In this document: piece after piece, positions 2,738 to 41,182 of the stretch | How the letters are laid out: each line of letters opens with the position of its first letter | Numbering within the stretch: the stretch's first letter is position 1 | Origin: Escherichia coli | GTDB taxonomy: Bacteria > Pseudomonadota > Gammaproteobacteria > Enterobacterales > Enterobacteriaceae | DNA length: 41,182 nt | Assembly (NCBI RefSeq): GCF_003334355.1 | Contig: NZ_QOWP01000031.1 | Reading direction: 5' to 3' (one strand) | The notes under the pieces: generated by a model | Told to the model about the DNA's origin: nothing | Database searches by the model: none | What the model saw: only the letters and a program-made list of their open reading frames with translations | Translations under genes and position numbers: made by a program

Positions 2738-2977
2738 TGTAAAGCATCCACAATAGAAGAAGGATGCCGCAGGTTTCATCAATATTACGCGATGATGAGA
2801 ACCAGATGCGACGTTGGCCGGCAGGTCTTCGGGCTTGGAGGGGTATCTAAGATACTAAGAGATGATGACTTCCCACCGGATGGCAGTGTCCGCATAACGC
2901 AATCATCGCACCTTTCCTTACCGCTGCGCGTCAGCTCCAGATTCGCACTGGATTCCCTATTAACTCACAGGACCGGC
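2738..2977 (-). promoter_or_regulatory. Cobalamin (B12) riboswitch in the btuB 5' leader
   Basis: Roughly 240-nt untranslated leader directly upstream of the btuB ATG; minus-strand sequence GCCGGTCCTGTGAGTTAATAGGGAATCCAGTGCGAAT... and the B12-box-like GAAGACCTGCCGGCC (plus-strand 2811-2835) match the btuB leader as I remember it. The 5' boundary is approximate. Confidence 0.75.
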
Positions 2978-3105
2978 AAGTGGATGCTACAGGTTGTAAC
3001 AAGTTACTGTCCAGACGTAGCTCACAAATAGGAATTCATCAAGATCTGGACATCTGATGAGCAATCCCTACAATCGCCGCGTACTTTAATTTTTCAGGAT
3101 ACATC

Positions 3106-7981: not shown

Positions 7982-8090
7982 GAAACGGAGCGGCACCTCT
8001 TTTAACCCTTGAAGTCACTGCCCGTTTCGAGAGTTTCTCAACTCGAATAACTAAAGCCAACGTGAACTTTTGCGGATCTCCAGGATCCGC
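7982..8090 (+). ncRNA. oxyS: OxyS small regulatory RNA
   Basis: 109-nt sequence GAAACGGAGCGGCACCTCTTTTAACCCTTGAAGTCACTGCCCGTTTCGAGAGTTTCTCAACTCGAATAACTAAAGCCAACGTGAACTTTTGCGGATCTCCAGGATCCGC matches oxyS as I remember it; ends in a GC hairpin (GCGGATCTCCAGGATCCGC) followed by T8 at 8091-8098. Confidence 0.85.
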
Positions 8091-8152
8091 TTTTTTTTGC
8101 CATAAAAAAGCCCGGCGATAAGCCAGGCTCAAATTTATACATATAAATGTTC

Positions 8153-11528: not shown

Positions 11529-12680
11529 ATGAAAAACAAATTACCGCCATTTATCGAGATTTACCGCGCTCTGATTGCCACACCTTCAATAAGCGCCACG
11601 GAAGAGGCACTCGATCAAAGCAATGCAGATTTAATCACTCTGCTGGCGGACTGGTTTAAAGATTTGGGCTTCAATGTGGAAGTGCAGCCTGTTCCAGGAA
11701 CTCGCAACAAATTCAATATGCTGGCAAGTATCGGACAGGGGGCTGGCGGCTTGTTGCTGGCGGGGCATACCGATACGGTGCCATTTGATGACGGTCGCTG
11801 GACGCGCGATCCGTTTACACTGACGGAGCATGACGGCAAGCTTTACGGCTTAGGCACCGCCGACATGAAAGGCTTTTTTGCGTTTATCCTTGATGCGCTA
11901 CGCGATGTCGACGTCACGAAACTGAAAAAACCGCTCTACATTCTGGCGACTGCTGATGAAGAAACCAGTATGGCCGGAGCGCGTTATTTTGCCGAAACTA
12001 CCGCCCTGCGCCCGGATTGCGCCATCATTGGCGAACCGACGTCACTACAACCGGTACGCGCACATAAAGGTCATATCTCTAACGCCATCCGTATTCAGGG
12101 CCAGTCGGGGCACTCCAGCGATCCAGCACGCGGAGTTAACGCTATCGAACTAATGCACGACGCCATCGGGCATATTTTGCAATTGCGCGATAACCTGAAA
12201 GAACGTTATCACTACGAAGCGTTTACCGTGCCATACCCTACGCTCAACCTCGGGCATATTCACGGTGGCGACGCTTCTAACCGTATTTGCGCTTGCTGTG
12301 AGTTGCATATGGATATTCGTCCGCTGCCTGGCATGACACTCAATGAACTTAATGGTTTGCTCAACGATGCATTGGCTCCGGTGAGCGAACGCTGGCCGGG
12401 CCGTCTGACGGTCGACGAGCTGCATCCGCCGATCCCTGGCTATGAATGCCCACCGAATCATCAACTGGTTGAAGTGGTTGAGAAATTGCTCGGAGCAAAA
12501 ACCGAAGTGGTGAATTACTGTACCGAAGCGCCGTTTATTCAAACGTTATGCCCGACGCTGGTGCTCGGTCCGGGTTCCATCAATCAAGCTCATCAGCCTG
12601 ATGAATATCTGGAGACGCGGTTTATTAAACCCACCCGTGAGTTGATTATCCAGGTAATTCACCATTTTTGCTGGCATTAA
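11529..12680 (+). CDS. argE: Acetylornithine deacetylase ArgE
   Basis: ORF-track protein trimmed to [26 protein letters not shown]... (383 aa); M20 peptidase family; atg at 11529. Confidence 0.9.
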
Positions 12681-12683
12681 AAC

Positions 12684-12785
12684 GTAGGCCGGATAAGGCG
12701 CTCGCGCCGCATCCGGCACCGTTGCCAAACTCCTGTGCCGCAATAATGTCGGATGCGATACTTGCGCATCTTATCCGACCTACAC
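12684..12785. repeat. REP/BIME cluster (two inverted REP units)
   Basis: GTAGGCCGGATAAGGCGCTCGCGCCGCATCCGGCAC and GTCGGATGCGATACTTGCGCATCTTATCCGAC: imperfect palindromes with the GCCGGATAAGGCG...CATCCGGC REP signature. Confidence 0.8.
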
Positions 12786-17812: not shown

Positions 17813-18664
17813 ATGTATCACGACGTCAGCTATCTGCTCTCCCGCCTGATCAACGGCCCGCTGTCCCTGCGCCAGATTTACTTTGCCAGCAGTAACGGCC
17901 CGGTGCCCGATCTTGCGTATCAGGTCGATTTTCCACGGCTGGAAATTGTGCTGGAAGGTGAGTTTGTTGATACCGGCGCTGGAGCAACGTTAGTTCCCGG
18001 CGATGTGCTGTACGTTGCCGCTGGTGGCTGGAATTTCCCACAATGGAAAACACCCGCTACCACCTTTAGCGTGCTGTTTGGCAAACAGCAACTCGGCTTC
18101 AGCGTCGTGCAATGGGATGGCAAACAATATCAAAATCTGGCGAAGCAACACGTCGCCCGGCGCGGCCCACGCATAGGTTCTTTTCTGCTACAAACGCTCA
18201 ATGAAATGCAAATGCAGCCGCAGGAGCAGCAAACGGCAAGGCTTATCGTCGCCAGCCTGCTTAGCCACTGCCGCGATTTGCTTGGCAGCCAAATCCAGAC
18301 CGCCTCACGCAGCCAGGCACTATTTGAAGCTATTCGCGATTATATCGACGAACGCTATGCCTCCGCGCTTACCCGCGAATCTGTTGCGCAGGCGTTTTAT
18401 ATTTCGCCAAATTACCTCTCGCACCTGTTTCAAAAAACGGGGGCCATTGGTTTTAACGAATACCTGAATCACACGCGACTGGAGCACGCTAAGACGTTAT
18501 TGAAAGGCTATGACCTGAAGGTAAAAGAAGTGGCGCACGCCTGCGGCTTTGTCGACAGCAACTACTTCTGCCGTCTGTTTCGTAAAAACACCGAACGCTC
18601 GCCGTCGGAATATCGTCGGCAGTACCACAGCCAACTGACAGAAAAACCGACTACTCCAGAATAA
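17813..18664 (+). CDS. yijO: AraC/XylS-family transcriptional regulator YijO
   Basis: 283-aa ORF; C-terminal AraC-type HTH recognisable (...YISPNYLSHLFQKTGAIGFNEYLNHTRLEHAKTLL...). Confidence 0.85.
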   Translation: MYHDVSYLLSRLINGPLSLRQIYFASSNGPVPDLAYQVDFPRLEIVLEGEFVDTGAGATLVPGDVLYVAAGGWNFPQWKTPATTFSVLFGKQQLGFSVVQWDGKQYQNLAKQHVARRGPRIGSFLLQTLNEMQMQPQEQQTARLIVASLLSHCRDLLGSQIQTASRSQALFEAIRDYIDERYASALTRESVAQAFYISPNYLSHLFQKTGAIGFNEYLNHTRLEHAKTLLKGYDLKVKEVAHACGFVDSNYFCRLFRKNTERSPSEYRRQYHSQLTEKPTTPE

Positions 18665-18992
18665 GATGGGTTTGCTGCGGCGCAGAAAGCACTTTGCGCA
18701 CCGCGCTCATTACCCGCTGCGGCTCACGCAGGAATGCGTAGATGCTGCATTGCACATAGCGGCAATGTTCAAATCGCTCGGCACCGGCAAGCTCGATATC
18801 CGTAATCAACAGAGCAACATCCGCCCGACGGATATCCTCGTCCGCTAAACGATTCTCCGTTCCCAGCGCGCCCTGAGTTTCAATGCTGACTCCCCACTTC
18901 TCTAACAGGCACAACTTTTCCAGCCGTTCCGCCGCCATATAAGTATGCGCCACGCCACTGACGCAGGCGGTTACTGCCACCAGGTATGCCAT
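18651..18992 (-). CDS. frwD: PTS fructose-like EIIB component FrwD
   Basis: 113-aa ORF with the EIIB motif VTACVSGVAHTYMAAE; convergent 14-bp overlap with the yijO 3' end. Confidence 0.88.
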   Translation of the reverse strand: MAYLVAVTACVSGVAHTYMAAERLEKLCLLEKWGVSIETQGALGTENRLADEDIRRADVALLITDIELAGAERFEHCRYVQCSIYAFLREPQRVMSAVRKVLSAPQQTHLILE

Positions 18993-18993
18993 T

Positions 18994-19872
18994 TTAACCT
19001 CCCACGGTAACCTGAAATCCGGCCCGTTCTGCCATTTCGCGCATCGTTGTCACATCGGCTGACGACGGCGCAGGCACCTCTTTCATCGACCATGTTTTCC
19101 CCAGCAGGCGGTATTTCGGTTCGCCGTACTGATGAAACGGTAACAGATGGATCTGCCTGATTTTCAGCGGGATCAGTACATCCAGCGCCTGCTGCATATT
19201 CTCCCGGCTGAGCGTGAAACCAGGGATCAACGGTAAACGCGGGATCACGTTGACACCCTCACTCACCAGCAAACGCAGATTCTCCAGCACGCGTGGCAGG
19301 TTCATCTTCACCACATCCCGCGCCTGAGTCGCGTCCATAATTTTTAAATCGAACAGCACTTCATCGCACAATTTCGCCAGCGGTAACAGCTTGCTTGCTG
19401 GCGCGTCTCCGGCAGTTTCAATGGCGCATGACACACCCCACAGCCGCAGTCGCTGTAAAAAACGGGTAGCAAACTCCGCCTGCATTAACACTTCGCCGCC
19501 AGAAAGCGTGACGCCGCCGCCGGACGTGCGAAAAAAAATGTCATCTTTCATCACTTCCCGTTCCAGAGCGTCAAGGCTGATATCGCGACCAATCCGTTCA
19601 AACGCCCCGGAGGGGCATTCATCCGCATCACGCAAACATTTCGCACAGTGCAGACATTTCGCCTCTCTGCGTACCGTCTGGATTTTGCCGGAGATCGACT
19701 CCGGATTAGCACACCACGGGCAAAGATGCGGACAGCCTTTAAAAAAGACCACCGTACGAATGCCCTCACCGTCATTCAGTGAATAACGCTGAATGTTGAA
19801 AATGCGCGCCACATCATTGCGGCGCGTTTCCACAACGTTACAGCTGATGCGCTGTCCGGCGGATGATGTCAT
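18994..19872 (-). CDS. pflC: Glycyl-radical enzyme activating enzyme (radical SAM) PflC
   Basis: Trimmed to MTSSAGQRISCNVVETRR... (292 aa); radical-SAM CxxxCxxC in GCPHLCPWCANPE; cat at 19870-19872. Confidence 0.88.
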   Translation of the reverse strand: MTSSAGQRISCNVVETRRNDVARIFNIQRYSLNDGEGIRTVVFFKGCPHLCPWCANPESISGKIQTVRREAKCLHCAKCLRDADECPSGAFERIGRDISLDALEREVMKDDIFFRTSGGGVTLSGGEVLMQAEFATRFLQRLRLWGVSCAIETAGDAPASKLLPLAKLCDEVLFDLKIMDATQARDVVKMNLPRVLENLRLLVSEGVNVIPRLPLIPGFTLSRENMQQALDVLIPLKIRQIHLLPFHQYGEPKYRLLGKTWSMKEVPAPSSADVTTMREMAERAGFQVTVGG

Positions 19873-22135
19873 CCTGGATCTCCTTCGACAGTTCGACAAA
19901 GAAGGCGCTGTATCCGGCAACGCGCACCACCAGCCCGGCATAATCTTGTGGGCGCTGTTGCGCTTCCCGCAACGTGTCGGCGTTCACCACGTTAAACTGA
20001 ATATGTTGTAACTTAAGCTGGGTAAACGCCCGTAAGAAGTCGGCCAGTTTGCGTAATCCCGCTTCACCTTCCAGGGTCGCCGGAGTGAATTTCACGTTCA
20101 GCAATGTACCGTTAGACAGCAGTGTGTTATCGAGCTTACTGACTGACTTCAGTACCGCCGTTGGCCCTTGTGCGTCCTGACCCAGCATAGGTGACAAGCC
20201 GCCGTCTGCCAGCTGTTCTCCGGCAAAACGACCGTCTGGCATCGCGCCAACCACCGATCCCAACGGAACGTGAGCAGAAACGGTATACGATCCCGGCGTG
20301 AAGTAGCCGCCGCGCGGGTTCTGGTATTTTTCCACTTCTTTGCAGTAGTGGCGCAACAGTTCGGCGCTAATGTTATCCACCTCGTCGATATCGTTACCGT
20401 ATTTCTCAAAGCGGTTAATTAAGCGAGCGCGGACTTTTTCGCCTTCTGGCGTTGCAAAGTTGGCTTTTAATACCGACAGCAATTCGTCAAAACTTAAACG
20501 CTGTTGATCAAAAACCATCCCTTTCAACGCATGGAGAGAATCGCTCAGGTTGGCGATACCGATCCCCTGTACGCCGGAGAAGTTATAACGCGCGCCGCCA
20601 TCGGTAATATCGCGGCCTTTTTCCAGACAATCGCTGATAAAAGACGAGAGCAGCGGTACAGGTGCCCAGTCGCGATGGCCGATATCGCAAATATTACTGC
20701 CTTCAACCATCAGGGTGATGTAGTGGCTGATCTTGGCACGGATCTGTTCCAGTAAACCTTCATAAGTCAGCGCGGCATTGCCTTCATTTTCATGCAGGCA
20801 GATTTCCATCACTTTCAGCAGGTTAAACATCGCGATGTCATGCAAGCCGTAGGTTCTGCCGGGAATAGATAATTCCACACAGCCCACTACGGAATAGTCG
20901 CGCGCATCTTCCAGCGAAACGCCACGGTTGAGGAACGCTGGCACCACCACTTCATCGTTAAAGATTTGCGGAATACCGGTGCCGAGGCGAATGGTTTCGG
21001 CGGTTTTCATCAGGAACGGCGTGTCGATCAAGGCGTTAGTGCGCACGCCGAGGTTCGGTTGCGGTAATTGCACGCTTTGATAGGCGTCAAGGCAAAGGAA
21101 CGAAAGCACGTTCACCGCGCTACGTCCGTTCTCGGTTAACCCGCCGAGCAGTGCGGTATAGCCGGTCGGGAAACCGGCGAAATAACGCGCGCTGCTGGTG
21201 GAGCGCAACAGCACGATGTCGTTGCATTTCACCCATAAAGATTCGAGCAGTTCTTTCAGGAACGCCGCATCTTCGCCCTGGGTTAATGATGTCTGATAGA
21301 ACGGCAACATATACTGGTCGAAGCGCCCCAACGATAGCGAACTGGCGTTGGATTCGTATTGCAGAATGATGTTCATGTACCAGAATAACTGGCACGCCTG
21401 CCAGAACGTCTGCGGCTTATGTTGCGCGTTATGGCGGGAGATCTCCGCAATAGTCAGCAGCTCTTCGCGACGCTGGGCATCTGTGCAGTTTGCCGCCATC
21501 GTTTCCGCCAGTTCGGCGTAACGCAAAATGTGTTTCTGCGAGGCTTCCAGCAGTAACAGCGCTGCCTGATAAAAGTGATTCTCCGGCTGTTGCTGACAAT
21601 GTTGCTGCATCTGTGCTACCAGCTCCCCCAGCCCGTGATTCAGCAGGCGTGGGTAATCAATAATAATGTGCCCCTGGCCTTTATCTGTCTGGTTGATGCT
21701 GAAAATCTGCGTGCTGGTCGCGGCTTTTACTTCATCTGTCATCTGCCCGTTGATGAAATCTTTCATCGAACGTTTTTCCCAGTACGGGAACAACTCTTCG
21801 CGGTAGATACGTTTATCTTCTTCGCTGATAGCAAAGCGGTCCTGCGGACGCGTCGGGAATTGATCCAGCTCTTTCAGCAGCCAGTAAGGGTCCATTTCCG
21901 GCGACATAATCCCGGCGCGCGGTTTTACGGTGCGGTTACCGGCAATCAGTTCTTCATCACGAATCGAAATTTCAACATGTTCAAGGATATACGCTGTTGC
22001 TTTCGCCCGGCGCAATATCACCGGTTCGCCTTCGGTTTGCCGATGGCTGGCGGTATAAAGCAGCGCCCGCTCCAGCGAGATTTCACGGGTATTGGAAAAC
22101 AGTGCAGTTTTGAGGCGAGAGATACGATTCGTCAT
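19838..22135 (-). CDS. pflD: Pyruvate formate-lyase-like glycyl radical enzyme PflD
   Basis: 765-aa ORF; C-terminal glycyl-radical motif (VRVAGYSAFF); 3' end overlaps the pflC start by 35 bp. Confidence 0.9.
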   Translation of the reverse strand: MTNRISRLKTALFSNTREISLERALLYTASHRQTEGEPVILRRAKATAYILEHVEISIRDEELIAGNRTVKPRAGIMSPEMDPYWLLKELDQFPTRPQDRFAISEEDKRIYREELFPYWEKRSMKDFINGQMTDEVKAATSTQIFSINQTDKGQGHIIIDYPRLLNHGLGELVAQMQQHCQQQPENHFYQAALLLLEASQKHILRYAELAETMAANCTDAQRREELLTIAEISRHNAQHKPQTFWQACQLFWYMNIILQYESNASSLSLGRFDQYMLPFYQTSLTQGEDAAFLKELLESLWVKCNDIVLLRSTSSARYFAGFPTGYTALLGGLTENGRSAVNVLSFLCLDAYQSVQLPQPNLGVRTNALIDTPFLMKTAETIRLGTGIPQIFNDEVVVPAFLNRGVSLEDARDYSVVGCVELSIPGRTYGLHDIAMFNLLKVMEICLHENEGNAALTYEGLLEQIRAKISHYITLMVEGSNICDIGHRDWAPVPLLSSFISDCLEKGRDITDGGARYNFSGVQGIGIANLSDSLHALKGMVFDQQRLSFDELLSVLKANFATPEGEKVRARLINRFEKYGNDIDEVDNISAELLRHYCKEVEKYQNPRGGYFTPGSYTVSAHVPLGSVVGAMPDGRFAGEQLADGGLSPMLGQDAQGPTAVLKSVSKLDNTLLSNGTLLNVKFTPATLEGEAGLRKLADFLRAFTQLKLQHIQFNVVNADTLREAQQRPQDYAGLVVRVAGYSAFFVELSKEIQDDIIRRTAHQL

Positions 22136-22185: not shown

Positions 22186-22506
22186 TTAAGCGGTTTGCGC
22201 CAGGTGAGCTTCAATTTTGCTCATAATGGCGTCAGCACGTTTTACCGCATCGCTGATGTTGACGCGCACGATGGTCTTGCCAGCAAAACGCTCTTCAAAC
22301 TTGATGCCGATATCTTTGGTCAGAATCACCATATCAGCGCTCGCCACGTCTTCCGCTGTCAGTTCATTTTCCAGACCAATTGACCCCTGGGTTTCTACTT
22401 TCACTTCCCAGCCTTTCGCTTTCGCGGCACTTTCCAGCGCCTCTGCTGCCATATAGGTATGGGCAACACCTGAAGGACATGCGGTTACTGCAATAATTTT
22501 CGTCAT
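22186..22506 (-). CDS. frwB: PTS fructose-like EIIB component FrwB
   Basis: 106-aa ORF with VTACPSGVAHTYMAAEALE; paralogous to FrwD. Confidence 0.88.
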   Translation of the reverse strand: MTKIIAVTACPSGVAHTYMAAEALESAAKAKGWEVKVETQGSIGLENELTAEDVASADMVILTKDIGIKFEERFAGKTIVRVNISDAVKRADAIMSKIEAHLAQTA

Positions 22507-22520
22507 GGCTTGTTCCTCAA

Positions 22521-23600
22521 TTAATTAATTTCAAAATCCAAATCCAGGTCGTCTTCTTTTTCATCAGTCGAAGACCCATTTTTACGCGCCAGACTTTTCA
22601 GCACGTTCACACAAACAGCCGTCACCACTGCTCCGACAGCCACTGCGGCGATATAACCCAGCTTGCCTTCAACCACCGGCAGTACAATCAGACCACCCCA
22701 GCCTGCATAGCACTGCGCACCGACCAGCGCCGCAGTTACCGCACCACAAACAGAACCAACCATGATGGAAGGAATGACACGCAGCGGATCGGCAGCGGCG
22801 AAAGGAATCGCCCCTTCAGTAACCCCAACGCACCCCATCACCAGCGCCGCTTTACCAGTTTCGCGCTCTTCTGCGGAGAAATTTTTACGACCAATCAGCG
22901 TCGCCAGCCCCATCCCCAGCGGTGGAACACAAATCCCAACAGCGGCAATAGCCACCACGGTATAAACACCCTGAGCAACGCAAATCAGCATGAAGGCATA
23001 GGCCACTTTGTTAACCGGACCGCCCATATCGAACGCCAGCATCAGACCCATGATCACCGCCAGCATAACAATGCTGCCCTGCTGCATCCCCTGAAGCCAC
23101 TGAGTCAGGCTGTTGGTCAACGCCCCTACAGGCTCGCCCAAGCCCCACATCATGATGCCTGCGGTAATCAGTGTGCCGACGATAGGAATGATGAAGATAG
23201 GCATCACCGAGCGCAGAACTTTATGCACCGGAATTTTCTTCAGGTAATGCACCACGATGCCGCCGATAATCCCGGCGATCAGCGCACCAAAGAAGCCCGC
23301 ACCAAAGCTGTTACCAACCCAGGCACCGATAGCGCACGGAGCCAGCGCAGAACGCTCTGCAATGGAGTAACCAATGTAAGCGGCGAGGAAAGGCACCATC
23401 AGCGTCAAACCCGCAACGCCGATATCAAACAGTTTTTTCAGATTCGGATCGGCTACGGCATCCGGCACTGCGCCTTTGCCATACAACATGACGGAAACCG
23501 CCAGCAAAATACCGCCCGATACCACGAAGGGAATCATGTGTGAAACGCCCGTCATTAAATGCTGACGGGTATTTTTCAGGATCTGCACCAACTCATTCAT
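22521..23600 (-). CDS. frwC: PTS fructose-like EIIC permease FrwC
   Basis: Trimmed to MNELVQILKNTRQHLMTGVSHMIPFVV... (359 aa); polytopic membrane protein; cat at 23598-23600. Confidence 0.88.
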   Translation of the reverse strand: MNELVQILKNTRQHLMTGVSHMIPFVVSGGILLAVSVMLYGKGAVPDAVADPNLKKLFDIGVAGLTLMVPFLAAYIGYSIAERSALAPCAIGAWVGNSFGAGFFGALIAGIIGGIVVHYLKKIPVHKVLRSVMPIFIIPIVGTLITAGIMMWGLGEPVGALTNSLTQWLQGMQQGSIVMLAVIMGLMLAFDMGGPVNKVAYAFMLICVAQGVYTVVAIAAVGICVPPLGMGLATLIGRKNFSAEERETGKAALVMGCVGVTEGAIPFAAADPLRVIPSIMVGSVCGAVTAALVGAQCYAGWGGLIVLPVVEGKLGYIAAVAVGAVVTAVCVNVLKSLARKNGSSTDEKEDDLDLDFEIN

Positions 23601-23908
23601 AAGCTGCTCCCGGGCTTGCAAAAGCCCATGTCCATATTTTTGATGGAGGAAACAATAGGCAATCGCAGGCGGAGCAAACAGTGGATAAAAAGGCCATTTA
23701 CTGGACTTTTGTAATATCAGTACAAAAATGCGATCCGCCTCATAACTTGCGATAATCCGGAAGCATGCCGCAAAACGGCGTCTTGTGAGACGCGTCGCAA
23801 ATTGACGGTTACATTACATTTGTCCAGCTTTTGGCAGATTTGTCACATGGCAGGCCGTTGCCGTGCGCTCTTATCCTGTAAACAGAAAACCGTACCGGGA
23901 GAGAGGCA

Positions 23909-26410
23909 ATGGCCCTGATTGTGGAATTTATTTGTGAGCTACCTAACGGCGTACATGCACGTCCGGCAAGCCACGTTGAAACGCTGTGTAATACTTTTTC
24001 ATCACAAATTGAGTGGCATAACTTGCGCACTGACCGCAAGGGCAACGCCAAAAGCGCCCTTGCGCTGATTGGCACCGATACGCTGGTGGGCGATAACTGC
24101 CAGTTACTGATTTCCGGGGCCGACGAACAGGAAGCGCACCAGCGTTTAAGCCAATGGCTGCGCGATGAATTCCCCCACTGCGACGCACCGCTGGCGGAAG
24201 TTAAATCTGACGAACTGGAACCACTGCCGGTTTCACTGACCAATCTGAATCCGCAAATTATCCGCGCCCGCACCGTGTGCAGCGGTAGCGCAGGCGGCAT
24301 TCTGACGCCGATCTCTTCTTTAGATCTCAATGCGCTGGGTAATCTTCCTGTTGCCAAAGGCGTTGACGCCGAGCAATCCGCGCTGGAAAACGGCCTGACA
24401 CTGGTATTGAAAAACATTGAATTTCGACTGCTGGATAGCGACGGTGCTACCAGCGCGATACTGGAAGCTCACCGATCCCTGGCTGGCGATACTTCTTTAC
24501 GTCAGCACTTACTGGCAGGCGTCAGCGAGGGATTAAGCTGTGCCGAAGCGATTGTCGCCAGTGCACACCACTTCTGCGAAGAGTTCGCCCGTTCCAGCAG
24601 TAGCTACCTGCAAGAACGCGCCCTGGACGTACGCGACGTCTGCTTCCAGTTACTCCAGCAAATCTACGGTGAGCAACGCTTCCCGGCACCGGGAAAACTG
24701 ACGCAGCCCGCCATTTGTATGGCTGATGAACTGACCCCCAGCCAGTTCCTCGAACTGGATAAAAATCACCTCAAAGGATTGTTGCTCAAAAGCGGCGGCA
24801 CCACCTCACATACGGTGATCCTTGCCCGTTCGTTCAACATTCCAACGCTGGTTGGTGTGGATATTGATGCCCTCACTCCGTGGCAGCATCAGACGATTTA
24901 TATCGACGGCAACGCTGGGGCGATTGTGGTTGAGCCAGGGGAAGCCGTAGCCCGTTATTATCAGCAAGAAGCCCGCGTACAGGACGCCCTGCGTGAGCAA
25001 CAGCGTGTCTGGCTGACCCAACAAGCCCGTACCGCTGACGGTATCCGCATTGAAATTGCCGCTAACATCGCTCACTCCGTGGAAGCACAGGCCGCGTTCG
25101 GCAATGGTGTGGAAGGCGTTGGTTTGTTCCGCACTGAAATGCTCTATATGGATCGCACCAGTGCACCGGGCGAAAGCGAGCTGTACAACATTTTTTGTCA
25201 GGCGCTGGAGTCTGCCAACGGACGCAGCATTATTGTGCGCACTATGGACATTGGCGGCGACAAACCCGTTGATTATCTAAACATTCCCGCAGAGGCAAAC
25301 CCGTTCCTCGGTTATCGCGCGGTGCGTATTTATGAAGAATACGCCTCGCTGTTCACCACACAACTACGGTCGATCCTGCGCGCCTCCGCTCACGGCAGCC
25401 TGAAAATCATGATCCCGATGATCTCCTCAATGGAAGAGATCTTATGGGTGAAAGAAAAACTGGCGGAAGCCAAACAGCAACTGCGTAACGAACACATTCC
25501 GTTTGATGAGAAGATCCAGCTCGGCATTATGCTGGAAGTGCCGTCGGTGATGTTCATCATCGATCAATGCTGCGAAGAGATTGATTTCTTTAGTATTGGT
25601 AGTAATGACCTGACGCAGTATCTGCTGGCGGTGGATCGCGATAACGCTAAGGTTACTCGTCACTACAACAGCCTGAATCCGGCATTCTTGCGGGCGCTCG
25701 ATTACGCCGTGCAAGCGGTGCATCGCCAGGGAAAATGGATTGGTCTGTGCGGTGAGCTGGGAGCGAAAGGTTCCGTGCTGCCGTTGCTGGTCGGTTTAGG
25801 GCTGGATGAGCTGAGCATGAGCGCACCATCAATTCCGGCGGCGAAAGCGCGGATGGCGCAACTTGATAGCCGTGAGTGCCGCAAGTTGCTCAACCAGGCA
25901 ATGGCCTGCCGTACTTCGCTGGAAGTGGAACACCTGCTGGCGCAATTCCGCATGACCCAACAAGACGCACCGCTGGTCACCGCCGAGTGCATCACACTGG
26001 AAAGCGACTGGCGCAGCAAAGAAGAAGTACTCAAAGGCATGACCGATAACCTGCTGCTGGCGGGCCGCTGCCGCTATCCGCGTAAACTGGAAGCCGACTT
26101 GTGGGCGCGCGAGGCCGTTTTCTCTACCGGTCTGGGCTTTAGTTTTGCCATTCCACACAGCAAATCAGAACACATTGAGCAATCCACCATCAGCGTAGCG
26201 CGTCTGCAAGCGCCGGTGCGCTGGGGCGATGATGAAGCGCAATTCATCATTATGTTAACCCTGAACAAACACGCTGCGGGCGATCAGCATATGCGCATTT
26301 TCTCGCGCCTCGCTCGTCGCATCATGCACGAAGAATTCCGTAACGCGCTGGTTAACGCCGCCTCTGCCGACGCTATCGCCAGCCTGCTGCAACATGAACT
26401 GGAACTGTAA
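23909..26410 (+). CDS. ptsA: Multiphosphoryl-transfer PTS protein PtsA/FrwA (HPr-like + Enzyme I + EIIA-Fru-like)
   Basis: 833-aa ORF; N-terminal HPr-like segment with His ([13 protein letters not shown]), central PEP-utilising Enzyme I region ([21 protein letters not shown]), C-terminal EIIA domain. Confidence 0.88.
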
Positions 26411-26421
26411 AAGGAAACATC

Positions 26422-27084
26422 ATGGAACTGTATCTGGACACCGCTAACGTCGCAGAAGTCGAACGTCTGGCACGCATATTCCCCATTGCCGGGGTGACAA
26501 CTAACCCGAGCATTATCGCTGCCAGCAAGGAGTCCATCTGGGAAGTGCTGCCGCGTCTGCAAAAAGCGATTGGTGATGAGGGCATTCTGTTTGCTCAGAC
26601 TATGAGTCGTGACGCGCAGGGTATGGTGGAAGAAGCGAAGCGCCTGCGCGACGCCATTCCGGGCATCGTGGTGAAAATCCCGGTGACTTCCGAAGGTCTG
26701 GCCGCCATTAAGATGCTGAAAAAAGAAGGTATTACTACACTTGGCACCGCTGTATATAGCGCCGCACAAGGGTTATTAGCCGCACTGGCAGGGGCAAAAT
26801 ACGTTGCTCCGTATGTTAACCGCGTAGATGCCCAAGGCGGAGACGGCATTCGTACGGTTCAGGAGCTGCAAGCACTGTTAGAAATGCACGCGCCAGAAAG
26901 CATGGTGCTGGCAGCCAGCTTTAAAACGCCGCGTCAGGCGCTGGACTGTTTACTGGCAGGATGTGAATCCATCACCCTGCCCTTAGATGTAGCGCAACAA
27001 ATGCTCAACACCCCTGCGGTAGAGTCAGCTATAGAGAAGTTCGAACACGACTGGAATGCCGCATTTGGCACTACTCATCTCTAA
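26422..27084 (+). CDS. fsaB: Fructose-6-phosphate aldolase 2 FsaB (TalC)
   Basis: 220-aa [36 protein letters not shown]...; transaldolase-like family. Confidence 0.9.
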
Positions 27085-27094
27085 AGGAGCAATT

Positions 27095-28198
27095 ATGGAC
27101 CGCATTATTCAATCACCGGGTAAATACATCCAGGGCGCTGATGTGATTAATCGTCTGGGCGAATACCTGAAGCCGCTGGCAGAACGCTGGTTAGTGGTGG
27201 GTGACAAATTTGTTTTAGGTTTTGCTCAATCCACTGTCGAGAAAAGCTTTAAAGATGCTGGACTGGTAGTAGAAATTGCGCCGTTTGGCGGTGAATGTTC
27301 GCAAAATGAGATCGACCGTCTGCGTGGCATCGCGGAGACTGCGCAGTGTGGCGCAATTCTCGGTATCGGTGGCGGAAAAACCCTCGATACTGCCAAAGCA
27401 CTGGCACATTTCATGGGTGTTCCGGTAGCGATCGCACCGACTATCGCCTCTACCGATGCACCGTGCAGCGCATTGTCTGTTATCTACACCGATGAGGGTG
27501 AGTTTGACCGCTATCTGCTGTTGCCAAATAACCCGAATATGGTCATTGTCGACACCAAAATCGTCGCTGGCGCACCTGCACGTCTGTTAGCGGCGGGTAT
27601 CGGCGATGCGCTGGCAACCTGGTTTGAAGCGCGTGCCTGCTCTCGTAGCGGCGCGACCACCATGGCGGGCGGCAAGTGCACCCAGGCTGCGCTGGCACTG
27701 GCTGAACTGTGCTACAACACCCTGCTGGAAGAAGGCGAAAAAGCGATGCTTGCTGCCGAACAGCATGTAGTGACTCCGGCGCTGGAGCGCGTGATTGAAG
27801 CGAACACCTATTTAAGCGGTGTAGGCTTTGAAAGTGGTGGTCTGGCTGCGGCGCACGCAGTGCATAACGGCCTGACCGCTATCCCGGACGCGCATCACTA
27901 TTATCACGGTGAAAAAGTGGCATTTGGTACGCTGACGCAGCTGGTTCTGGAAAACGCACCGGTTGAGGAAATCGAAACCGTAGCTGCACTTAGCCATGCG
28001 GTAGGTTTGCCAATAACTCTCGCTCAACTGGATATTAAAGAAGATGTCCCGGCGAAAATGCGAATTGTGGCAGAAGCGGCATGTGCAGAAGGTGAAACCA
28101 TCCACAACATGCCTGGCGGCGCGACGCCAGATCAGGTTTACGCCGCTCTGCTGGTAGCCGACCAGTACGGTCAGCGTTTCCTGCAAGAGTGGGAATAA
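27095..28198 (+). CDS. gldA: Glycerol dehydrogenase GldA
   Basis: Trimmed to [24 protein letters not shown]... (367 aa); iron-containing alcohol dehydrogenase family; atg at 27095. Confidence 0.92.
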
Positions 28199-28230: not shown

Positions 28231-28243
28231 TGAACGCAAAATT

Positions 28244-28343
28244 GCCTGATGCGCTACGCTTATCAGGCCTACGCAATCTCTGCAATATATTGAATTTGCG
28301 TGCTTTTGTAGGCCGGATAAGGCGTTCACTCCGCATCCGGCAC
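28244..28343. repeat. REP/BIME cluster
   Basis: GCCTGATGCGCTACGCTTATCAGGCCTACG ... TGTAGGCCGGATAAGGCGTTCACTCCGCATCCGGCAC; almost the same arrangement as the cluster at 38083-38181. Confidence 0.8.
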
Positions 28344-38053: not shown

Positions 38054-38082
38054 AGCAAAAAAGAGCGGCGCGGAGTGGAATC

Positions 38083-38181
38083 GCCTGATGCGCTACGCTT
38101 ATCAGGCCTACGTCATATTGCAATTTATTGAATTTGCACGAACTTGTAGGCCGGATAAGGCGTTCACGCCGCATCCGGCAT
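38083..38181. repeat. REP/BIME cluster
   Basis: GCCTGATGCGCTACGCTTATCAGGCCTACG ... TGTAGGCCGGATAAGGCGTTCACGCCGCATCCGGCA. Confidence 0.8.
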
Positions 38182-38989: not shown

Positions 38990-39262
38990 ATGGTCACAGT
39001 TAACCTTCATTGCCCCCGTTGCCAGTCCGTTCAGGTTTACCGTCACGGGCAGAACCCAAAAAGACATGATCGATTCCGCGGCCGTGACTGTCACCGGGTA
39101 TTTCAGCTCAGTTACTGTTACGAGCCCCGTAAACCGGGAGTTAAAGACCAAATCGCTGAAATGACTTTCAACGGTGCCGGGGTTCGCGATACTGCCCGTA
39201 CGCTGAAAATCGGCATTAATACAGTCATCCGAACTTTAAAAAACTCTCGCCACGAAGAATAA
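38990..39262 (+). CDS. insA: IS1 InsA-like protein (zinc-finger / HTH transposition regulator)
   Basis: 90-aa ORF MVTVNLHCPRCQSVQVYRHGQNPKRHDRFRGRDCHRVFQ... with CxxC...CxxxC zinc-finger-like spacing and a C-terminal HTH-like segment (ARTLKIGINTVIRTLKN); similar to remembered canonical InsA at roughly half the positions. Confidence 0.75.
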   Translation: MVTVNLHCPRCQSVQVYRHGQNPKRHDRFRGRDCHRVFQLSYCYEPRKPGVKDQIAEMTFNGAGVRDTARTLKIGINTVIRTLKNSRHEE

Positions 39263-39696
39263 CGTCATCCCCGGTCGCTCATGCTGATGTGGCACTCATC
39301 TGCAAACTTAGTCAGCAATGGAGCTTTGTCGGCAGTAAAGCGCGACAGCACTGGTTCTGGTACGTGTACAACACGAAAACTGGTGGTGTTCTGGCCTACA
39401 CTTTTGGCCCCCGGACTGACGAAACCTGTCGTGAATTGCGGGCGCTGCTTACCCTTTTACCATCGGCATGTTGACCACTGACGAATGGGGTAGTTACGCT
39501 AGAGAGTTACCGAAGGAGAAGCATCTGACTGGTAAGATTTTTACTCAGCACATTGAGCGTAACAATCTGACCCTGAGAACCCGAATCAAACGTCTGGCCC
39601 GCAGAACCATCTGTTTCTCGCGTTCTGTAGAACTTCATGAAAAAGTCATCGGTGCTTTTATCGAAAATATATGTTCTACTAATTGGAGTCATCACC
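39240..39696 (+). pseudogene. insB: IS1 insB-like transposase gene, interrupted by a frameshift
   Basis: InsB-like sequence is split across two frames: 39289-39474 (...QWSFVGSKARQHWFWYVYNTKTGGVLAYTFGPRTDETCRELRALLTLLP) and 39468 onward (MLTTDEWGSYARELPKEKHLTGKIFTQHIERNNLTLRTRIKRLARRTICFSRSVELHEKVIGAF...), with the shift near 39445-39450; the second frame has no stop before the right inverted repeat. Confidence 0.55.
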
Positions 39697-39837
39697 CTTC
39701 TGATAAGCTTTCCTTGGATGATTACCAGACTGAATACACAGCCAAAGATTTTTACCTCATTCTGCTCTTTTTTCTCAAATGACATATATTATATTTTACA
39801 TCATATTCATAGGCATATGACATTCCCCCGCCCCCCA

Positions 39838-40074
39838 TTATGTCATTGTGGGTTGATGTTGGGCTTTCATAAAAAAAACATCTTTTTTTGAACTAGCATT
39901 AATTATATTTACTTTATATATTAAAATATTTTCTCCATCTGGAAATATTTTAGCCACACAATATAAAGCAGCTGAATCCGAATTACTGAAAAATATATTA
40001 TCATCACCCATAACTCCAGCCATTAAATGACTGGAGACTAAAGCAAGGAAATAACAACATTGTATTGCCTTCAT
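39838..40074 (-). CDS. Candidate Rhs immunity protein (78 aa, signal-peptide-like N-terminus)
   Basis: ATG 1 nt after the Rhs TAA stop (minus strand GGGAGTAATTAAAATGAAGGCA, with GGGAG as a Shine-Dalgarno-like sequence); MKAIQCCYFLALVSSHLMAGVMGDD... The ORF track's longer 90-aa version starts inside the rhs gene. Very AT-rich. Role inferred from position immediately 3' of an Rhs C-terminal domain. Confidence 0.55.
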   Translation of the reverse strand: MKAIQCCYFLALVSSHLMAGVMGDDNIFFSNSDSAALYCVAKIFPDGENILIYKVNIINASSKKDVFFMKAQHQPTMT

Positions 40075-40075
40075 T

Positions 40076-41182
40076 TTAATTACTCCCTTGCCTGATAATT
40101 GTAACTCCATTCCCTTTAGCTTTGGGATTATATTTTAGATAGGTGTTATTTGGTGTTCCCAAGTAACTACTGTATTCTTTTTTTCCCATTCCATTCATAT
40201 AAGAATTCGTTAAATCTTTGCTTGAAAAATTTAGACTATCATAAACATCATTTTCTTTTGTTACTTTATTTCCTTTATCGTCAGAGTAAAAACCGTGAGT
40301 GTGATAATCGCCTACTCTCTCTGAACCTTCAGGGCATTTTATATTTCGCAAGTCTACACTATCATTATCATTTGAACTTATCGGATTCATGGGGAAATAT
40401 TCACCTTGCTTCTTACATATTAGTCCACCATATTCTTTATTCTCGTTAATTGATTCTCCATTACACATTGCCAATGCAAATATTCCAATATCATCTATAT
40501 TTTTTGATTTAAATTCATATAATCCTAATGGATCCATGCTATTCACCGGGCTCAGCGGATATGTATACAGGTTCCATCCCCCCTTCAGCCCAATCGGATC
40601 CTGAGTGATATACCTCCCCCGCAGCGGGTCATAATAGCGGTGGCGGTTATAATACAGGCCGGACTCCTCATCATACTGCTGCCCCGGCAGGCGGATGAGC
40701 TGCTGCAGCTGGTGCGGGTTCTCTTCATTCAGCTGGTTACCCCATTCATCGTATTCCCGGCGTATTTCCAGCCAGTCAGGCCCGGTGGCTGACGTTAACT
40801 GGCTGTGGTGGTTATAGTAAAACGCCGATGCCCTGCCATCCGGCGTGGTGATGCGCGTGATGAGGCCCGTCACCACATCCGGGCTGTATTCTGTTGTCCT
40901 GCCTGCGGCATCCGTCTGTGCCCTGAGCCTGCCCACCGCGTCAAACTGACTCTGCGTGACGCTGCCGTCCGCGTGTTCCTTTTTCACCACCCGCTTCAGC
41001 CCGCCTTCGCCTGCGGTATGCAGGACTTCACGGCGGTTCAGGCTGTCGGTGATGGTGATGCGGTCCTTCTCATACTGATACGTGTAGCTTAAGCCTGCCG
41101 GGTTTAGCTGTTCTGTCACCCGCCCGTCGCTGTCGTAACGGTAACGGATTTCCGGCCGGCCCGTGTGACGGTGCGCCACCAT
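40076..41182 (-). CDS. Rhs-family polymorphic toxin, 3' portion (YD-repeat core end + DPxGL + 147-aa variable C-terminal domain); 5' end lies beyond the window
   Basis: ORF is open to the window edge; translation contains YD-repeat core sequence and the core-terminal motif ...[39 protein letters not shown], followed by a 147-aa AT-rich tail ([10 protein letters not shown]...RQGSN). Stop at 40076-40078. Confidence 0.85.

Follow-up and report, generated by a model that had tools for sequence, protein, structure and literature searches.

PtsA of Escherichia coli, a fusion of HPr, Enzyme I and EIIA with a probable role in the Frw permease system

A window of 41,182 nucleotides of Escherichia coli DNA (the whole stretch analysed here) contains a long reading frame that an earlier note had described as one continuous 833-aa fusion of an HPr-like segment, an Enzyme I (EI) core and a C-terminal EIIA-Fru-like domain, with a Pfam search proposed as the check. 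The locus raises the questions of which soluble relay modules of the sugar phosphotransferase system (PTS) are joined in this chain, where its translation begins, and which permease it serves. We hold with high confidence that the frame is ptsA, that it encodes a multiphosphoryl transfer protein with the order HPr, EI, EIIA, and that this protein most likely works for the Frw permease. The fusion architecture as such is already known from RefSeq for strain K-12, from UniRef and from the literature on PTS evolution; RefSeq calls the K-12 protein (b3947) "putative PTS multiphosphoryl transfer protein PtsA", the UniRef name is "Multiphosphoryl transfer protein 2", and a search of 5,426 complete E. 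coli genomes found the locus in every one. As a discovery this carries little weight, and the practical worth lies in annotation: the PGAP symbol of the coding sequence is "ptsP", a naming artefact by which an automatic label masks two of the three modules and borrows the symbol of a different gene.

Three modules in one chain

The frame is intact from its ATG to the TAA at 26408-26410, and its length as well as the Pfam E-values lie far beyond chance expectation. The Pfam search found PTS-HPr, the EI domains and PTS_EIIA_2 in the order that had been claimed, each with its catalytic residues (Table 1). PTS-HPr (PF00381) matches residues 7-84 (E 6.3e-14), and an HPr-like domain is thus present in the first 90 residues, where the earlier note had placed it. 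The motif GVHARPASH, which had been pointed out as carrying the active histidine, comprises residues 14-22, and its phospho-acceptor His16 aligns with position 15 of HPr and Crh, while Ser49 is the equivalent of Ser46. A profile built from 39 N-termini matches every solved HPr (1e-10 to 6e-16). The linker that follows is the least conserved segment of PtsA (amino acid identity 0.65-0.76, pN/pS 0.17-0.51) and the part of the full-length structure model with the lowest confidence (pLDDT 65 for the block 91-100), and across homologues the linker between HPr and EI has a length of 31-43 residues.

The EI part is covered by PEP-utilisers_N (PF05524, residues 123-237), PEP-utilizers (PF00391, 266-337) and PEP-utilizers_C (PF02896, 363-653, E 6.6e-120), which together span residues 123-653, and with 479.9 bits PtsA exceeds the cut-off of the NCBIfam model TIGR01417 (341.7). 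In alignments with solved EI, GGTTSH301 corresponds to the GGRTSH motif, and Cys614 is aligned as well. After a linker of roughly 15 residues, PTS_EIIA_2 (PF00359) matches residues 690-829 (E 2.2e-33), a domain of the fructose/mannitol type as had been proposed, in which AIPH750 aligns with the active-site histidine of IIA-Ntr and IIA-Mtl. As the score for the fructose IIA model TIGR00848 falls slightly below the cut-off (96.2 versus 103.5 bits), the EIIA domain gives no indication of the sugar specificity. Among 80 homologues at 32-65% identity, His16, His301 and Cys614 are each found in all 80 and His750 in 79, and essentially full-length alignments with PtsA were obtained for about 110 among the 150 best representatives of 50%-identity clusters. 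PTS-HPr is fused to a full EI and to EIIA, and domains, catalytic residues and orthology all agree with membership in the HPr-EI-IIA(Fru) type of multiphosphoryl transfer proteins, the PtsA/FryA group.

The AlphaFold2 (AF2) model of the full-length protein (pLDDT 92.2, pTM 0.84) supports these assignments. Solved C-terminal domains of EI superimpose on the barrel with TMt 0.93-0.97 and an rmsd of 1.2-1.4 Å, the N-terminal domain of EI reaches TMt 0.61-0.74, and EIIA structures are found with TMt 0.83 (2a0j) and 0.77 (1a3a). The top 50 PDB fold matches of this model comprise EI, dikinase and EIIA only and no HPr, and since the full-length fold search could not test for HPr, that fold was examined on a separate model of residues 1-92. 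This model (pLDDT 97.5) has the beta-alpha-beta-beta-alpha-beta-alpha topology of the HPr fold, and its top 40 PDB matches are without exception HPr, Crh or NPr, mostly with TM about 0.8-0.9 (0.84 for E. coli HPr).

Table 1. Coordinates of ptsA, its modules and its neighbours in the window
Feature	Position	Strand	Remarks
ptsA coding sequence	23909-26410	+	833 codons plus TAA; ORF list, RefSeq CDS
Shine-Dalgarno-like GGGAGAGAGG	23897-23906	+	ends 2 nt 5' of the ptsA ATG; direct sequence reading
HPr-like phosphocarrier domain	23909-24172	+	residues 1-88; His16 codon CAT 23954-23956; Ser49 codon 24053-24055
Flexible linker between HPr domain and EI	24173-24253	+	residues 89-115 (27 residues)
EI N-terminal half	24254-24943	+	residues 116-345; helical subdomain for HPr binding, swivel domain with the phospho-histidine; His301 codon 24809-24811
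GTG codon 123	24275-24277	+	start of the 711-aa database annotation (833-122 = 711)
EI C-terminal PEP-binding barrel	24995-25963	+	residues 363-685; catalytic Cys614 codon 25748-25750
EIIA domain, fructose/mannitol/Ntr type	25976-26395	+	residues 690-829; phospho-acceptor His750 codon 26156-26158
frwD, second EIIB	18651-18992	-	Cys10 (ACVSGVAHT); NCBIfam NF007747, 224 bits; translation
pflC and pflD	18994-22135	-	pflD 19838-22135, glycyl radical enzyme (NF007437); pflC 18994-19872, radical-SAM activase (NF007483)
frwB, EIIB	22186-22506	-	Cys10 (ACPSGVAHT); NCBIfam NF007783, 210 bits
frwC, fructose-family EIIC membrane permease	22521-23600	-	NCBIfam NF007787, 720.6 bits; annotation; divergent operon
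frwC-ptsA divergent control region	23601-23908		blocks nearly invariant across five genera (alignment)
fsaB and gldA	26422-28198	+	directly 3' of ptsA; fsaB 26422-27084 (TIGR00875); gldA 27095-28198 (NF047954)

The start of ptsA

The closest in-frame stop upstream of ptsA is at 23879, which is why the ATG of the long form is the first possible start. In RefSeq, ptsA is a single CDS with exactly these limits in a strain that is identical across the compared 2.8 kb, and likewise in K-12 MG1655. The earlier note had stated that some annotations begin at a later Met. Such a shorter form indeed exists, as an exact look-up of a 711-aa sequence in NCBI, ENA and PIR returned a PIR entry, EGW89707.1 and CAM8462518.1, but its first residue is not encoded by ATG: residue 123 is a valine in the long PtsA and is written as Met in the 711-aa form, the codon being GTG. 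In the literal sense the later Met had to be rejected, as there is no in-frame ATG after codon 1 before codon 271, which is in the swivel-domain region of EI.

If this GTG were the start, the HPr domain would be lost, the true product would contain nothing but EI and EIIA, with codons 1-122 as an untranslated or decaying leader. The public annotation of the 711-aa form and the fact that GTG is a legitimate start codon in the proper frame speak for this, and it is nevertheless extremely improbable. Codons 1-88, which match PTS-HPr significantly and are modelled as a confident HPr fold, are under purifying selection (pN/pS 0.10-0.17) as strong as in the rest of the gene, and His16 is unchanged in the 80 diverse homologues. 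The ATG together with its Shine-Dalgarno position is conserved across five genera: GGAGAGAGG and its spacing to the ATG are unchanged in Escherichia, Salmonella and Edwardsiella, in Pluralibacter this position is taken by GGAGAGAAG, and Enterobacter has GAGGAG seven bases farther upstream, while the region farther 5' is divergent between the genera. In contrast, no purine-rich Shine-Dalgarno sequence was found 5' of GTG codon 123 in ptsA, and this codon falls inside the first predicted strands of the EI module (residues 116-124 in the AF2 model). The current RefSeq annotation also is the long form, and a length of 833 aa is found in nearly all of the 120 closest protein clusters listed, with few exceptions that are shorter or longer, in about ten enterobacterial genera. 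It is thus the conserved start region, the selection on codons 1-88, the cluster lengths and the HPr-fold model that together support the long form. The shortened PtsA without HPr domain still circulates in databases, and any modelling of the Frw/PflD anhydro-sugar pathway requires the 833-aa protein, because the relay from EI to EIIA would break without the HPr domain.

Relatives of PtsA and other phosphotransfer proteins

The orthologue in E. coli K-12 (b3947, YP_026278.1) has the same length and is identical at 825 of the 833 positions (99%); none of the eight substitutions (e.g. A60V, A147V, E199Q) touches a catalytic residue, and the same neighbours are found on both sides, with frwC and fsaB/gldA flanking ptsA in either strain. 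A paralogue with the same HPr-EI-EIIA order is FryA (b2383, "putative PTS multiphosphoryl transfer protein FryA"), which is 45% identical from end to end across 831 aa and shares the motifs GxHARPA, TSH and PH, but is encoded at another locus with the partners fryB and fryC and the aminopeptidase genes ypdE and ypdF, and without a glycyl radical enzyme.

The three chemistries and folds are those of the canonical system with PtsI, PtsH and a separate EIIA, and the EI part of PtsA has 34-35% identity to solved EI (TMt up to 0.71 for the whole EI), but in PtsA the three modules are joined in one chain that is tied to one permease. PtsI itself, the general EI that stands alone with about 575 aa, was considered and rejected, as PtsA has an additional HPr and EIIA and reaches only 431.1 bits with NF008382 (cut-off 824). 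The same applies to PtsP (EI-Ntr; NF008283, 381 bits, cut-off 583), an EI with a GAF sensory domain fused to its N-terminus, as Pfam detected neither a GAF nor any other sensory domain in PtsA, and the score for the PtsN equivalog is also under its cut-off.

Other covalent fusions of PTS relay modules for fructose-family permeases are known from the multiphosphoryl transfer proteins (MTPs) of the FruB type (EIIA-HPr-EI) and from FPr (IIA-M-HPr). In FruB-type MTPs the EIIA is N-terminal and in PtsA it is C-terminal, and some FruB-type representatives align to PtsA residues 11-666, shifted by their N-terminal IIA domain. They form a separate clade and have been assembled independently (PMC2405797). 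The diphosphoryl transfer protein FPr/FruB, which has an N-terminal IIA-Fru and HPr without EI, could be dismissed since the domain order is reversed in PtsA and the score is low (NF008319, 62.9 bits, cut-off 302).

More attention is required for DhaM (EIIA-Man-HPr-EI-N), the phosphoryl donor of dihydroxyacetone (DHA) kinase, in which HPr is directly followed by the N-terminal/His domain of EI as in PtsA. Residues 5-339 of PtsA align with this HPr and EI-N part (NF008478, E 4e-25), and ptsA forms one operon with fsaB and gldA (PMC6643234), whose products both make or use DHA, so that PtsA might be a DhaM-like donor in DHA metabolism. This is very improbable all the same, as the score (88.6 bits) is far under the cut-off of 520, the EIIA-Man domain that defines DhaM has no Pfam match in PtsA, MTPs linked to DHA kinase belong to a different clade (PMC2405797), and a clean ptsA deletion grows on DHA like the wild type (PMC6643234). 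DhaM also has no PEP-binding barrel and relies on the general EI and HPr, whereas PtsA contains the barrel together with a fructose-type EIIA and is self-sufficient.

Gene neighbourhood and proposed phosphorelay

Divergently from ptsA, a fructose-family EIIC gene and two EIIB genes are found together with the genes of a glycyl radical enzyme and its activase, and on the side of ptsA only 11 nt separate it from fsaB and 10 nt separate fsaB from gldA. The order yijO / frwD-pflC-pflD-frwB-frwC <> ptsA-fsaB(-gldA) is kept in Salmonella, Edwardsiella, Pluralibacter and Enterobacter, and the cluster also surrounds a PtsA relative of 65% identity. More distant relatives adjoin EIIC/EIIB genes, and no separate EIIA gene is visible near them within the stretches fetched. 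The Frw permease is part of a conserved cluster for anaerobic catabolism that also encodes PflD/PflC, the aldolase FsaB and the reductase GldA.

PtsA is therefore most likely the private energy-coupling module of the Frw permease, with a flow from PEP via His301 and His16 to His750. The C-terminal barrel of the EI part would bind PEP, with Cys614 as catalytic acid, and His301 of the swivel domain would become phosphorylated. The tethered HPr domain would then take over the phosphoryl group on its His16 and hand it on to His750 of EIIA, which in turn would phosphorylate Cys10 of the separate EIIBs FrwB and/or FrwD, FrwB being the probable acceptor, and these would phosphorylate the sugar during its import by FrwC. 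The two linkers may give the small domains enough freedom to meet their partners, be it within one chain or between the chains of an EI-type dimer. We infer this phosphoryl flow, the intra- or inter-chain transfer and also the substrate, for which a sentence in a review (PMC12441222, citing Ma et al. 2024) links the frw/ptsA cluster to the anaerobic catabolism of 1,5-anhydromannitol. According to this source, the pathway begins with a PTS, and PflD converts 1,5-anhydromannitol-6-phosphate to 1-deoxyfructose-6-phosphate; it is this sentence together with the gene neighbourhood that connects Frw and PtsA with 1,5-anhydromannitol. In the literature searched, no biochemical record of PtsA phosphotransfer was found, and the older names frwA, b3948 and yijH led to unrelated papers only.

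It could be argued that PtsA acts chiefly in regulation or as a reserve phosphorelay, much like the nitrogen PTS or an additional EI/HPr for other permeases, and not as a dedicated driver of Frw. E. coli has several EI and HPr paralogues (PMC2405797), regulatory IIA-Ntr proteins are the best solved relatives of the PtsA EIIA, and the clean deletion had no growth phenotype on DHA (PMC6643234), a result from aerobic growth that is uninformative on the native role. Such a function is nevertheless unlikely in view of the tight and conserved divergent linkage with one EIIC and two EIIB genes and the lack of a separate EIIA gene in the frw-ptsA cluster, and neither the missing sensory domains nor the scores below the PtsP and PtsN cut-offs fit to it.

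For PtsA as the driver of Frw, it can tentatively be considered, as a rather doubtful extension, that the fusion may insulate the Frw relay from the general EI and HPr, and that expression may depend on a site for the AraC-type regulator YijO and on CRP. If this were true, anaerobic uptake of anhydro-sugars would neither drain nor report to the Crr/cAMP circuit of catabolite control. In the intergenic region between frwC and ptsA, a scan for the sigma-70 consensus gave no match and a repeat finder gave no direct-repeat family. A CRP-like sequence, TGTGAGACGCGTCGCA at 23784-23799, is the sole match with at most one mismatch in the window, where about one is expected by chance. By eye, a putative pair of ATTTGTC sequences, 7 nt only, can be seen in this region at a distance of 21 bp.

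Architecture and identity of PtsA

The ATG at 23909 is the earliest possible start of ptsA, because the nearest in-frame stop upstream lies at 23879, 30 nt before it; the purine-rich GGGAGAGAGG ends 2 nt before this ATG. The earlier note had described one continuous 833-residue frame in which an HPr-like segment with the active histidine in GVHARPASH is fused to an Enzyme I core and a C-terminal EIIA-Fru-like domain, and apart from the start codon of a shorter form, which is treated below, both observation and interpretation were correct: the Pfam search places an HPr match within the first 90 residues, followed by three Enzyme I matches and PTS_EIIA_2 (see the table). In NCBIfam, TIGR01417, the domain model of the Enzyme I family, is also matched above its cut-off, with 479.9 against 341.7 bits. 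As PtsI, PtsP, DhaM or FPr, PtsA scored well under the cut-off of each NCBIfam equivalog.

His16 (GVH16ARPA) aligns with His15 of HPr and Gln15 of Crh, and Ser49 takes the Ser46 position. GGTTSH301 and GLC614GE were aligned to the phospho-histidine motif and the catalytic cysteine motif of solved Enzyme I, and AIPH750 to the histidine at the active site of IIA-Ntr and IIA-Mtl. Across 80 aligned full-length homologues with just 32-65% identity to PtsA, no sequence deviates at His16, His301 or Cys614, and His750 is retained in all except one (79/80).

Features of PtsA, its neighbourhood and other parts of the window
Feature	Position	Strand	Remarks
ptsA ORF	23909-26410	+	833 codons, uninterrupted, TAA end
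PTS-HPr	PtsA residues 7-84		Pfam, E 6.3e-14
PEP-utilisers_N	PtsA residues 123-237		Pfam, E 7.4e-10
PEP-utilizers	PtsA residues 266-337		Pfam, E 5.6e-15
PEP-utilizers_C	PtsA residues 363-653		Pfam, E 6.6e-120
PTS_EIIA_2	PtsA residues 690-829		Pfam, E 2.2e-33
fsaB	11 nt past ptsA	+	fructose-6-phosphate aldolase 2
gldA	further 10 nt past fsaB	+	L-1,2-propanediol/glycerol dehydrogenase
frwC	divergent from ptsA	-	EIIC
frwB	divergent from ptsA	-	EIIB, cysteine at position 10
pflD, pflC	divergent from ptsA (pflD 19838-22135)	-	glycyl radical enzyme and activase
frwD	divergent from ptsA	-	second EIIB, cysteine at position 10
frwC-ptsA intergenic region	23601-23908		divergent
Conserved block ACAGTGGAYAAAAAGGCCATTTACTGGAYTTTTGTAATATCAG	~23678-23722		frwC-ptsA
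Conserved block ATTACATTTGTCCAGCTTTTGGCAGATTTGTCACATGG	~23812-23852		frwC-ptsA; ATTTGTC twice inside, 21 bp apart
CRP-like palindrome TGTGAGACGCGTCGCA	23784-23799		position kept in other genera
btuB cobalamin riboswitch	2803-2992	-	Rfam, 86.8 bits
OxyS sRNA	7982-8091	+	Rfam, 139.5 bits; adjoins oxyR
argE-ppc stretch, ~105 bases	12680-12784		intergenic, single copy
~103-bp element, first copy	28240-28342		intergenic, gldA-yijF
~103-bp element, second copy	38079-38180		intergenic, metJ-yiiX
ES036 (CssrF) sRNA match	38104-38145		Rfam, 39.6 bits, barely over gathering score
IS1 and Rhs remnants	38990-41182		right end of the window

Megablast with a 2.8-kb query assigned the ptsA region to Escherichia coli and found the locus in all 5,426 complete E. 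coli genomes, in 5,405 of them with at least 80% query cover. In a strain that is identical across the compared 2.8 kb, the RefSeq CDS coordinates equal those of the ORF exactly. The K-12 MG1655 counterpart (ptsA, b3947, YP_026278.1) shares 825 of 833 residues and is named 'putative PTS multiphosphoryl transfer protein PtsA' in RefSeq; the fusion is already known and correctly annotated there. Most E. coli RefSeq/PGAP records name the gene 'ptsP: phosphoenolpyruvate--protein phosphotransferase', a plain Enzyme I product name that masks the HPr and EIIA domains, under a symbol that belongs to the GAF-containing EI-Ntr gene. This label, the PflD name and the persisting 711-aa record (both below) are by-products of slight use for annotation hygiene.

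Multiphosphoryl transfer proteins fall into three groups (PMC2405797). Within E. coli, the paralogue FryA shares the architecture of PtsA, with 45% identity from end to end. In an exhaustive search of 1.84 billion representatives, about 110 of the best 150 clusters listed (50% identity) align essentially end to end with PtsA, at lengths of about 820-860 aa, which shows the HPr-EI-EIIA fusion to be widespread. The window holds nothing at odds with this known family.

The HPr part and the 711-residue form

The N-terminal extension of PtsA is real, as five lines of evidence indicate. Of 120 protein clusters listed as closest, from Escherichia, Citrobacter, Salmonella, Enterobacter, Kluyvera, Pluralibacter, Edwardsiella and further genera, nearly all have 833 aa, with a few shorter or longer exceptions, and every one has a precomputed PTS-HPr match. 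Pairwise codon comparisons with Salmonella, Edwardsiella, Pluralibacter and Enterobacter gave pN/pS values of 0.10-0.17 for codons 1-88 and 0.10-0.13 for the whole gene, the linker codons 89-122 being more relaxed (0.17-0.51). The ATG and the adjacent upstream Shine-Dalgarno-like purine run are kept in five of five genera, and the sequence beyond diverges. A profile from 39 PtsA N-termini matches all solved HPr, that of E. coli at 2.7e-13. The AlphaFold2 model of residues 1-92 (pLDDT 97.5) has the HPr topology beta-alpha-beta-beta-alpha-beta-alpha, and its best 40 PDB matches are HPr, Crh or NPr only, mostly at TM ~0.8-0.9, with a TMt of 0.84 and an rmsd of 1.3 A to E. coli HPr 1poh. In the full-length model (pLDDT 92.2, pTM 0.84) the linker around residues 91-100 is the sole weak stretch; TMt values reach 0.71 with solved whole Enzyme I, 0.93-0.97 with EI C-domains and 0.77-0.83 with IIA-Ntr and IIA-Mtl.

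It had also been claimed that some annotations start at a later Met. Shorter records do exist, and an exact look-up in public databases found the 711-aa sequence as PIR 'phosphoenolpyruvate-protein phosphotransferase ptsa', EGW89707.1 and CAM8462518.1, but their start is GTG123 (Val123 in the long form) and not a Met codon. There is no in-frame ATG between codons 1 and 271, and the alternative in-frame starts are GTG5, TTG39, GTG60 and GTG123. No Shine-Dalgarno sequence precedes GTG123. In the full-length model this codon falls inside the opening predicted strands of the Enzyme I module (116-124), and a start there would delete the HPr domain and the link from Enzyme I to EIIA. In K-12, ptsA was presumably split or annotated short at first and later merged, which fits the skip of locus tags from b3947 to b3949 and the YP_ type of the accession.

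Neighbourhood, likely role and control region

The genes ptsA, fsaB and gldA are reported to form a single operon (PMC6643234), and the AraC-family gene yijO comes next after the frw genes. Within the ptsA/frw cluster, no stand-alone gene for EIIA, HPr or Enzyme I was seen. The arrangement is kept in Salmonella, Edwardsiella (without gldA), Pluralibacter and Enterobacter, also in a relative with just 65% identity, and EIIC and EIIB genes adjoin more distant relatives too. In the simplest reading, PtsA provides all three soluble relay steps for the Frw permease, and the phosphoryl group would pass from PEP via His301, His16 and His750 to the EIIB cysteine and on to the sugar.

In the summary of Ma et al. 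(JACS 2024) that a 2025 review gives, PflD converts 1,5-anhydromannitol-6-phosphate to 1-deoxyfructose-6-phosphate under strictly anaerobic conditions, in a pathway that opens with PTS-mediated phosphorylation (PMC12441222). The adjacent aldolase and propanediol dehydrogenase genes fit this pathway, and gene linkage suggests that Frw/PtsA is its PTS. PflD is still named 'formate C-acetyltransferase' in NCBIfam NF007437 and PGAP, in contrast to the cleavage or dehydration of 1,5-anhydromannitol-6-phosphate that this summary assigns to it.

The uncharacterised frwC-ptsA control region shows striking conservation, with long blocks that are almost invariant in five genera despite near-saturated dS in the flanking genes. 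The neighbouring AraC-type regulator YijO may have its sites in these blocks. A search for sigma-70 consensus promoters between 23601 and 23908 gave no hit. The CRP-like palindrome is the only match to TGTGA-N6-TCACA with at most one mismatch in the 41-kb window, where about one is expected by chance.

Other features of the window

The mechanical ORF of gldA begins at ATG 27056 (380 aa; annotated start 27095, 367 aa), and its extension 27056-27094 would overlap the end of fsaB; that of frwC begins at TTG 23621 (366 aa; annotated start 23600, 359 aa). Both annotated forms align end to end in NCBIfam. OxyS and the btuB riboswitch come as no surprise in this part of the E. coli genome. The argE-ppc stretch has three tandem copies (period ~123 bp) in NZ_CP116913.1, which is otherwise 99.9% identical to the window and is therefore 246 bp longer at this place, so that annotation coordinates left of the stretch are shifted by 246. 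The two copies of the ~103-bp element are 88% identical, and although the metJ-yiiX copy overlaps the ES036 match, the element is more likely to be a dispersed repeat than a specific sRNA gene. According to the annotation of a near-identical record, the right end of the window holds an IS1 transposase with a frameshift and fragments of Rhs element genes (dsORF-f3, RHS core, rhsC remnant).
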